This document shows positions 41,717 through 43,664 of a stretch of DNA of 64,000 nucleotides, piece after piece. The stretch covers positions 15,595 to 79,594 of the forward strand of contig CAMAQV010000007.1 in NCBI GenBank assembly GCA_945860595.1, read 5' to 3'. Position 1 is the first letter of the stretch; each line of letters opens with the position of its first letter. The notes below the pieces were generated by a model that saw only the letters and a program-made list of their open reading frames with translations, was not told the DNA's origin and did not search any database. This stretch comes from Comamonas sp. lk. GTDB lineage: Bacteria; Pseudomonadota; Gammaproteobacteria; Burkholderiales; Burkholderiaceae_C. The position numbers and the translations under genes are program-made.

Positions 41717-42094
41717 TCACTCTGCGGCTTTGCCGGGCTTGCCCGGAGGGCTGGGCTGGCAGTGGGCCACCAACTGTTTGACGATGCCGGTGATCCACTC
41801 GCGGTCTGCTTGTGACAGCGTGGACAGCCAGATGCCGATGCGGTCCGCCTGCGGCACCGGCGCGACGGTGCGGTCGCCAATCAGTTCCATCATGGTCGTA
41901 TTCAACAGCAGCGAAATCGTCTCAATCGTGGTCAATGGGGGCAGGATGTTGCCGGTCTCATAACGCGAGACGGTCAGCGTGTCCACGTCCAGCAAATCGG
42001 CCAGGCGGCCCTGCGTCAGGCCCGCGGCCTTGCGGCGCGCAGCAATGTTGCGGCCCAGATTCTTGGCCAGTGCGCGGGGAGCTAGTTTTTCCAT
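41717..42094 (-). CDS. XRE-family HTH transcriptional regulator
   Basis: GRNIAARRKAAGLTQGRLADLLDV..TVSRYETG is a Cro/C1-type HTH, followed by a short C-terminal helical domain. Confidence 0.88.
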   Translation of the reverse strand: MEKLAPRALAKNLGRNIAARRKAAGLTQGRLADLLDVDTLTVSRYETGNILPPLTTIETISLLLNTTMMELIGDRTVAPVPQADRIGIWLSTLSQADREWITGIVKQLVAHCQPSPPGKPGKAAE

Positions 42095-42945: not shown

Positions 42946-43008
42946 ATTAGGCGCGTTTTATTTGCTCGGCAGATAAAGGCTCTTATCTGACGCGAGATGC
43001 ATTCACGC

Positions 43009-43032
43009 CATGTTGGCATAATAGCCAACATG
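43009..43032. promoter_or_regulatory. Perfect operator-like palindrome overlapping a -10-like box and the start codon
   Basis: CATGTTGGC-ATAATA-GCCAACATG: 9-bp arms. It contains CATAAT, and the right arm ends in the ATG at 43030. Confidence 0.7.
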
Positions 43033-43314
43033 ACTGCGCAACTCGTTACCCGCTTTAAAGACATCACAACAGATGGCGCAATTTTGGAGCTTGTGATTTG
43101 GAAGGTCCCTAAGCCCGTGCCACCCACTCAGCATGGGTACAAGTACCGCGCGGCTTATGTGGTGAATGGTGTGCGTGTCGTTGGTTTCGATAACGAGCGC
43201 GGCAAGGGCGACCACTGCCACTTGAACGGTGTCGAGAAGCCGTATGTGTTTATCAGCGTTGAGCAACTCGTGGAAGACTTTATCGCCGCCGTAGCGGCCC
43301 GGAGACCAATATGA
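43030..43314 (+). CDS. Small DUF6516-like protein, putative toxin of a two-gene module
   Basis: 94 aa; IWKVP..P..HGYKYR..Y and FDNERGKGDHCH resemble the DUF6516 family as I recall it. 4-bp overlap with the downstream HTH gene. Confidence 0.65.
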   Translation: MTAQLVTRFKDITTDGAILELVIWKVPKPVPPTQHGYKYRAAYVVNGVRVVGFDNERGKGDHCHLNGVEKPYVFISVEQLVEDFIAAVAARRPI

Positions 43315-43664
43315 CCGAGCGCTTTCTAACCATCACCCTTCAGCCGGATTGGAAGGGCGCTTTGCGCGCGATAGCCAAGGTTGCGCAAGCCGACAGCTAT
43401 CAGGGCGAGGTGCTGAACTTCGAAAGCCCGGCGCACTTCTTCGGCCGCCTCACAGAGAAGCGCTGGGACATTGTTCGCGCCGCCCAGGGCAAGGGCGAGT
43501 TATCGGTGCGCGAACTGGCCCGTACCGTGGGCCGCGACGTCAAGCGCGTTCATGAAGACGTGCAAGCCCTGGCGGAACTCGGGCTGCTGGAGCGCACCGA
43601 CAGCGACGGTCTGGTCTGCCCTTTTGAGTCCATGCATATTGATATGCATTTGAAGGCAGCTTGA
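43311..43664 (+). CDS. Winged-HTH DNA-binding protein (HVO_A0114/COG4190-like), putative antitoxin
   Basis: LTEKRWDIV...LSVRELARTVGRDVKRVHEDVQALAELGLL winged helix. ATGA coupling to the upstream gene. Confidence 0.75.
   Translation: MTERFLTITLQPDWKGALRAIAKVAQADSYQGEVLNFESPAHFFGRLTEKRWDIVRAAQGKGELSVRELARTVGRDVKRVHEDVQALAELGLLERTDSDGLVCPFESMHIDMHLKAA

Follow-up and report, generated by a model that had tools for sequence, protein, structure and literature searches.

Do two short, overlapping genes behind a perfect inverted repeat form a toxin-antitoxin (TA) module, and if they do, to which family does the toxin belong and how is the pair controlled? The question is raised by a locus in the 64-kb stretch of DNA analysed here (the window), for which a preliminary description had proposed a TA module with an unassigned toxin. 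The first half of that proposal is upheld by the Pfam family of the first protein (PF20126) and by the published work on this family (PMC10584680), while the second half is superseded, as the toxin family has already been named and validated. From the comparison of sequences we consider it very probable that the locus is a self-repressed, mobile, toxin-first type II TA cassette of the TumE-TumA superfamily.

The tumE gene and its winged-helix partner

The first gene, tumE, is located on the plus strand at 43030-43314, with its ATG at 43030 and its TGA at 43312-43314, and encodes a predicted toxin of 94 aa. The protein matches the Pfam family PF20126, "Toxin TumE" (formerly DUF6516), with 47.0 bits against a cut-off of 23.4 (E 2.6e-12), the alignment extending over profile positions 4-79 of 81. 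The window tumE was also recovered when the whole genome was scanned with PF20126. A database search returned 2016 homologs of gene 1, mostly from Burkholderiales metagenomes; 94 aa is a common length among them, and one is named by NCBI 'toxin-antitoxin system TumE family protein'. By this match gene 1 is assigned to the TumE family. A longer reading of the gene from the in-frame ATG at 42997, which would give 105 aa, was considered and rejected, as relatives align an ATG or GTG on 43030 in 74 of the 80 related loci described below, where 94-95 aa is the rule.

The gene is followed, on the same strand and with a four-nucleotide ATGA overlap, by a tumA-type partner at 43311-43664 which encodes 117 aa, a predicted antitoxin and autorepressor. 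The two small genes and their overlap had been given correctly in the preliminary description. A Shine-Dalgarno sequence for the second gene, GGAGA (43301-43305, plus strand), stands 6 nt ahead of the start codon at 43311, inside the 3'-terminal part of tumE. The partner matches PF25212 (HVO_A0114), a winged-helix family, with 88 bits; weaker matches, all below threshold, were found to MarR, ArsR, TrmB and IclR-type HTH models. In its structural model, a winged helix-turn-helix (wHTH) spans approximately residues 40-105 (about 43428-43625) with pLDDT of 80-96, and the fold of this wHTH matches ArsR/SmtB/MarR-type repressors (Foldseek probability 1.00, E ~1e-3). Thus, the second protein does look like the DNA-binding wHTH that had been proposed. 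Residues 1-39 are modelled with low confidence (pLDDT 48-55); this is the usual look of a toxin-binding antitoxin segment, and the N-terminus probably folds on binding. Comparison of the TumA sequence with PDB gave nothing useful, and a literature search on HVO_A0114 found no papers.

The AF2 model of TumE is of high confidence (pLDDT 95.4) and consists of six strands and a C-terminal helix. However, neither the sequence nor the model led to a known structure: no relative was found in PDB by sequence, and Foldseek returned no PDB match below E 0.3, the best being at E 0.31. No solved structure resembles TumE, in agreement with the 2023 paper on the family (PMC10584680), so the fold offers no mechanism. 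Searches of NCBIfam and PADLOC gave no match to TumE either.

The motif FDNERGKGDHCH (43186-43221, plus strand), which comprises residues 53-64, is marked out by conservation as the candidate active site. Among 75 close relatives of TumE, the motif residues N55, E56, R57, G58, K59, G60 and H62 never vary, and at least 90% of the sequences keep each of D54, D61 and H64. More distant homologs (37 sequences, 39-56% identity) show no change at D54 and K59, and N55, E56, G58, G60, D61, H62 and H64 are each retained in at least 90% of them. Outside the motif, G16, E20, W24, H35, K38, Y39, R49, G52, Y72, F74 and L80 are also invariant in the 75 sequences. The sequence DNERGKGDHCH had attracted attention earlier as compact and conserved-looking; over both sets (75 and 37 sequences) it proves to be the most conserved feature of the clade, and it is both the signature of this clade of TumE and the best candidate for the active site.

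Pairing, toxin loss and mobility in relatives

A search through genomes that represented each species once gave at least 464 loci with a relative, of which 80 were kept. The possibility that homologs do not occur as a pair, raised in the preliminary description as one that would speak against a module, was examined and is not so: a tumA homologue is present directly downstream of tumE, on the same strand, in 79 of the 80 loci. The sole unpaired locus (L072) ends at a contig edge, and in one of the paired loci (L079) tumA is truncated. The ATGA overlap of four nucleotides is kept in 67 of the 79 tumE-tumA loci, and the length of tumE in the 80-locus set is 94-95 aa.

Three related genomes (G005, G011 and G337) carry a tumA that is 65-82% identical to the window tumA and have no tumE; in two of them a 3' remnant of the toxin gene, its last ~15 codons (…IEDFIAAV…), is still readable just upstream. 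Absence of tumE was checked by tblastn on the regions themselves, a quick genome search having missed the gene in three other genomes (G246, G277 and G299). The reverse case, that is an intact toxin without antitoxin, was not seen in the loci surveyed. In L079, where tumA is cut to 33 aa, TumE carries both D54G and D61G. This is the only one of the 75 TumE sequences with Gly at both positions, and these glycines are the only non-conservative changes at D54 or D61 in the whole set. Although it is a single case from a metagenome bin, the pattern in L079 would be expected if the toxin depended on both aspartates and the antitoxin were dispensable once the toxin had failed. Taken together, toxin loss with retention of the antitoxin and the L079 case appear to fit addiction, and not co-regulation.

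In the window the neighbours are a minus-strand methyltransferase gene and a xylose-isomerase-like TIM-barrel gene, and the flanking genes also include those for an XRE-type HTH protein and a Gfo/Idh/MocA oxidoreductase. Not one of these flanking genes recurs in the 3 kb around the module at the 80 related loci, and in genomes of the same genus the two genes that flank it here are on different contigs or absent. The module had been described as sitting between unrelated genes, and this is correct. The GC content is 54% over tumE and 62-70% around it. A homolog is present in only 4 of 41 related genomes, and within the genus a close one was found in just one further genome. Homologs at 50-59% identity were found on 74 plasmids, 18 of them typed as conjugative. 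The conjugative plasmid pRL7 of Rhizobium johnstonii has the same two-gene arrangement beside an IS3 transposase, and one TumE homolog of 40% identity comes from an E. coli phage record. A second TumE/wHTH pair, which also matches PF20126 and PF25212, is encoded on another contig of the same genome, its TumE being 48% identical to that of the window; it neighbours genes which, recognised by eye, we take to be BrnT/BrnA-like and Phd/YefM-like. Compared across these loci, the tumE-tumA pair moves as a unit between unrelated contexts and onto plasmids, and its distribution is patchy and mobile.

Such a distribution raises the matter of biological role. The main role of the cassette could be abortive infection or phage defence, in which TumA turnover or a shut-off of transcription upon infection would free TumE and translation would halt before phage release. 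Protection against phage is a role of many type II TA modules, and besides the patchy, mobile distribution with its plasmid homologs, both the homolog in an E. coli phage record and the paralog amid what we take by eye to be other TA genes may be counted in favour of this role. However, the genes beside the window copy include none recognised as defence genes, phage-challenge data for TumE systems were not found in the literature searched, and, beyond the missing PADLOC match of TumE, the wHTH protein has only weak matches to Cas-associated wHTH models in PADLOC-DB 2.0 (best E 6.6e-6). We regard phage defence as a rather unlikely main role. This reading is compatible with the TA mechanism and differs from it in the biological role only.

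The dyad and the predicted promoter over the tumE start

A putative operator dyad (O2) is located at 43009-43032, with arms CATGTTGGC (43009-43017) and GCCAACATG (43024-43032) separated by the spacer ATAATA. The existence of a perfect palindrome which contains CATAAT and includes the first ATG, as the preliminary description had it, is confirmed. By itself, this palindrome does not stand out from chance over 64 kb: of perfect inverted repeats whose arms are 9 nt or longer and whose spacers do not exceed 10 nt, there are 4 in the window and, on average, 6.7 in first-order Markov resamplings. The expected count of such a repeat inside the intergenic stretch of ~130 nt is ~0.014. We take the dyad as real because it is conserved at a fixed position in relatives.

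This conservation was assessed by aligning 74 distinct upstream regions of relatives, anchored on the start codon. In 63 of the 74, the core TGTTGGC-N6-GCCAACA stands at exactly -19 to +1 and brackets a CATAAT -10 box; the pattern GTTGKC-N6-GMCAAC likewise begins at exactly -18 in 63 of 74. The consensus over these positions is T-GTTG(G/T)C-A(T/C)AAT(N)-GCCAAC-A, with 85-97% conservation at most of them, and no conservation is seen upstream at -60 to -49 and at -28 to -20. In the window the conserved core, TGTTGGC...GCCAACA, corresponds to 43011-43030, with the first base of the tumE start codon as the last position of its right arm. The outer 'CATG...CATG' arm bases of the window palindrome, on the other hand, are at background frequency in relatives. 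Of the perfect operator with two nine-nucleotide arms that had been proposed, the core dyad is therefore retained and the outer bases are not. In two loci (L025 and L032) both arms have changed together, to GATGTCA...TGACATC, so that the symmetry is kept. The recognition helix of TumA in these two loci reads RDMRRVHDDV, compared with RDVKRVHEDV in the majority. The arm change and the helix change as a matched pair are suggestive, though confounded by relatedness of the loci.

Conservation of the spacer takes the form of a -10 box: positions -13 to -8 read C-A-T-A-A-T, the A at -12 being present in 92% and the T at -8 in 95%, and a TG at -16/-15, as in extended -10 promoters, is present in 66 of the 74 upstream regions. 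In the window the predicted extended -10, TGgCATAAT, is located at 43014-43022 of the plus strand, inside the dyad, with CATAAT at 43017-43022. Roughly half of the relatives carry a second dyad, built from the same half-sites, at -46/-47. It holds a TTGACA -35 hexamer, which sits exactly 17 nt upstream of the -10; the hexamer is perfect in 29 of 74. The window has no such upstream dyad and its -35 is poor (GAGATG, 2/6 matches), so the promoter would depend on TGgCATAAT. A generic sigma-70 promoter scan of the window found no promoter here, because the scan requires a -35.

The end of the -10 is 7 nt from the ATG, which places the predicted transcription start at or next to 43030. Of 64 loci, none has a Shine-Dalgarno core of 4 nt or more ahead of tumE, and 63 have one ahead of tumA. 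This geometry, together with the missing Shine-Dalgarno sequence, suggests that the tumE mRNA is leaderless. A similar layout is found in more distant copies. In the paralog with 48% identity the geometry (TTGACA, 17 nt, TAGATT, 6 nt, ATG) is the same although the dyad, TATGGT-N7-ACCATA, is not, and the pRL7 homolog reads TTGACA, 17 nt, CATAAA, 7 nt, ATG. Conservation supports a putative operator that overlaps the predicted promoter, through which the pair may be autoregulated in the manner of type II modules. A loose form of the dyad pattern occurs twice in the genome, and since a reversed control pattern occurs equally often, there is no evidence of a regulon.

An operator and a winged-helix protein would also be expected of a non-toxic pair, consisting of a winged-helix repressor and a small co-regulator or sensor that tunes its DNA binding. 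These are in fact the best-supported parts of the locus, whereas TumE activity in the toxin-first/wHTH clade is deduced from the family, and the TumE fold has no solved relative. However, the only apparent target of the operator is the pair itself, as the loose pattern is no more frequent than its control, and a motif so rich in D, E, H, K and R and so nearly invariant is what would be expected of a catalytic site. Moreover, the orphan tumA genes and the D54G/D61G toxin beside a broken partner fit addiction, the Pfam score of TumE is well above the cut-off, and relatives of TumE are toxic in experiment (PMC10584680). We consider a non-toxic pair improbable. Still less probable is that the inverted repeat is no protein operator at all and forms an RNA hairpin in a longer 5' leader, masking the tumE start: the repeat does abut the start codon of a gene without Shine-Dalgarno sequence, and pairing is kept in most relatives, including the two loci with both arms changed, but the supposed loop is itself the conserved -10 box, the half-sites recur 28 bp upstream in the second dyad around the TTGACA -35, for which a hairpin has no need, the commonest variant (T at -14 opposite C at -5, 17/73) breaks the RNA pair and would be tolerable in a protein site, and the left arm would not be transcribed if the -10 inside the repeat is used.

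Possible mode of action and place among known systems

For the self-repressed TA cassette, which is the reading that we favour, the following sequence of events may be proposed. Transcription would proceed from the extended -10 inside the dyad and begin at the first base of the tumE start codon or right beside it, so that the tumE mRNA would be leaderless and weakly translated; tumA, which has its own GGAG ribosome site, would be made in excess. A TumA dimer, alone or together with TumE, would bind the dyad through its wHTH and block RNA polymerase, while the disordered N-terminal ~40 residues of TumA would become ordered on TumE, neutralising the toxin. Degradation of TumA or loss of the cassette would leave TumE free to inhibit translation. 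TumE is probably an RNase, predicted to use DNERGKGDHxH together with H35, K38, Y39 and R49. More tentatively, and as a possibility that we would not call likely, the leaderless tumE start under the operator arm and the Shine-Dalgarno-led tumA may set the toxin:antitoxin ratio, and DNExGKGDHxH may be an RNase active site in a fold with no solved relative. If this were true, conditions which favour leaderless translation, or which remove TumA, would tip the balance toward the toxin.

One more cassette of this kind matters little by itself, the superfamily being already named, validated and annotated by both Pfam and NCBI. The residual interest lies in the toxin-first/wHTH sub-architecture, in the predicted leaderless start inside an operator and in the biochemistry of TumE. 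To specialists the locus and its relatives offer a defined putative operator, the predicted leaderless start, a natural double mutant beside a broken antitoxin, and a set of candidate catalytic residues (D54, N55, E56, K59, D61, H62 and H64). A compact TumE of 94 aa would also be a convenient subject for studies of TumE activity and structure.

The wHTH core of the partner shares its fold with repressors of the ArsR/SmtB and MarR types (CadC 1u2w, NolR 4omz, SmtB 1r22), which bind dyad operators as dimers. The likeness is limited to that core. The Pfam matches of gene 2 to these families are below their cut-offs, it has no metal- or ligand-sensing domain, and it carries an additional N-terminal segment which is the predicted toxin binder.

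With regard to organisation, the closest parallels are higBA, hicAB and mqsRA, in which the toxin is encoded first, the antitoxin has an N-terminal toxin-binding part and a C-terminal DNA-binding domain, and the operator overlaps the promoter. The window cassette is similar in being toxin-first, in the C-terminal position of its DNA-binding domain and in its predicted promoter-overlapping operator. However, TumE is related neither in sequence nor in fold to HigB, HicA or MqsR, and the partner has a wHTH in place of the XRE-HTH or RHH of those systems. We know of no description of a leaderless toxin start with an operator arm ending on the start codon for higBA, hicAB or mqsRA.

The TumE-TumA superfamily itself was described by Durairaj et al. 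(Nature 2023, PMC10584680), who validated it as a type II TA group that inhibits translation. In E. coli BW25113, six gammaproteobacterial DUF6516/TumE proteins showed toxicity, which the cognate TumA encoded next to each of them counteracted (PMC10584680). The TumE of Allochromatium tepidum lowered 35S-methionine incorporation and is the only member for which an effect on translation was shown; RNase activity was proposed in that work without demonstration (PMC10584680). The window module resembles these systems in the Pfam family of its toxin, in being a two-gene cassette and in its small predicted DNA-binding partner. As in the family at large, its toxin has no solved structural relative and translation is the expected target. 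The family fold is described as alpha+beta, a seven-stranded antiparallel sheet with two helices (PMC10584680), whereas the model of the window TumE has six strands and one helix, a difference that comes from comparing descriptions. DUF6516 genes are 'predominantly located downstream' of their partner, and the validated pairs come from subcluster 1a, with a short antitoxin, RelB-like or unassigned, encoded upstream (PMC10584680). The window module, in contrast, is toxin-first, its toxin is shorter at 94 aa, and its partner is a 117-aa HVO_A0114 wHTH protein. No bench test of the short (~94 aa), toxin-first, wHTH-partnered clade was found in the literature searched. Judged by the described gene order and partner, the window module is a member of the TumE-TumA superfamily that stands outside the validated subcluster 1a.

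tumA genes with a lost or altered tumE

Among the related genomes, tumA without tumE was found at 1387-1839 of locus L089 (genome G011), at 565-960 of L099 (G337) and at 1435-1809 of L088 (G005), and ahead of two of the tumE-less tumA genes the final approximately 15 codons of tumE persist. G011 also carries an additional tumA copy whose own N-terminus is gone (L091, 1424-1744). Absence calls of the fast first-pass genome search are reliable only after checking. The search scored genomes G246, G277 and G299 as TumE-free; however, tblastn on the fetched regions (L095, L096 and L097, respectively) contradicted this, revealing an intact tumE directly 5' of tumA in all three.

The opposite partner is broken at L079 (3001-3383), the sole locus with a truncated tumA, where the gene encodes 33 amino acids followed by unrelated sequence. 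The TumE protein encoded beside it carries Gly at both D54 and D61, the near-invariant aspartates of the DNERGKGDHxH motif, a double substitution present at this locus only. This looks like a natural toxin-inactivation event, although it comes from a single metagenome bin.

Other inverted repeats and matches to the operator pattern

A second inverted repeat, CGGCAGATAA-N6-TTATCTGACG, lies in the divergent intergenic region of the window (42967-42992), its centre 41 bp upstream of that of the tumE operator. Its arms are 10 nt long with 90% complementarity, its sequence is unrelated to that of the TumA dyad, and the flank which holds it is common to no relatives. The repeat may be a site of another regulator, serving the divergent methyltransferase gene, or it may be a chance match.

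Within the 3' end of tumA there is also a perfect 8+8 palindrome, ATGCATAT-TG-ATATGCAT (43632-43649). Since this stretch codes for the conserved peptide MHIDMH (ATG CAT ATT GAT ATG CAT), the palindrome is probably incidental to the coding sequence rather than a site. The sole other match to the loose operator pattern in the genome, GTTGTCGTTATTGCCAAC (contig C1, 131968-131985), is probably due to chance, because a reversed control pattern gave as many genome matches as the operator pattern itself.

Further possible toxin-antitoxin genes in the same genome

On the minus strand of the window (41717-42094) an XRE-type HTH protein of 125 aa is encoded, with no obvious toxin partner adjoining the gene. 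Its match to the MqsA antitoxin family is weak and sub-threshold (21.7 bits, against a cut-off of 30 bits).

The genome possesses a second toxin-first TumE/wHTH pair, located on contig C40 (locus L090, 395-1034, minus strand). Its TumE (97 aa) is 48% identical to that of the window and its wHTH protein is 120 aa long; the pair has a separate dyad of its own, which spans a TAGATT -10 box. The adjoining genes (3-248 and 1517-2033) form with it a small cluster, and, identified by eye, we take them to be BrnT/BrnA-like and Phd/YefM-like.
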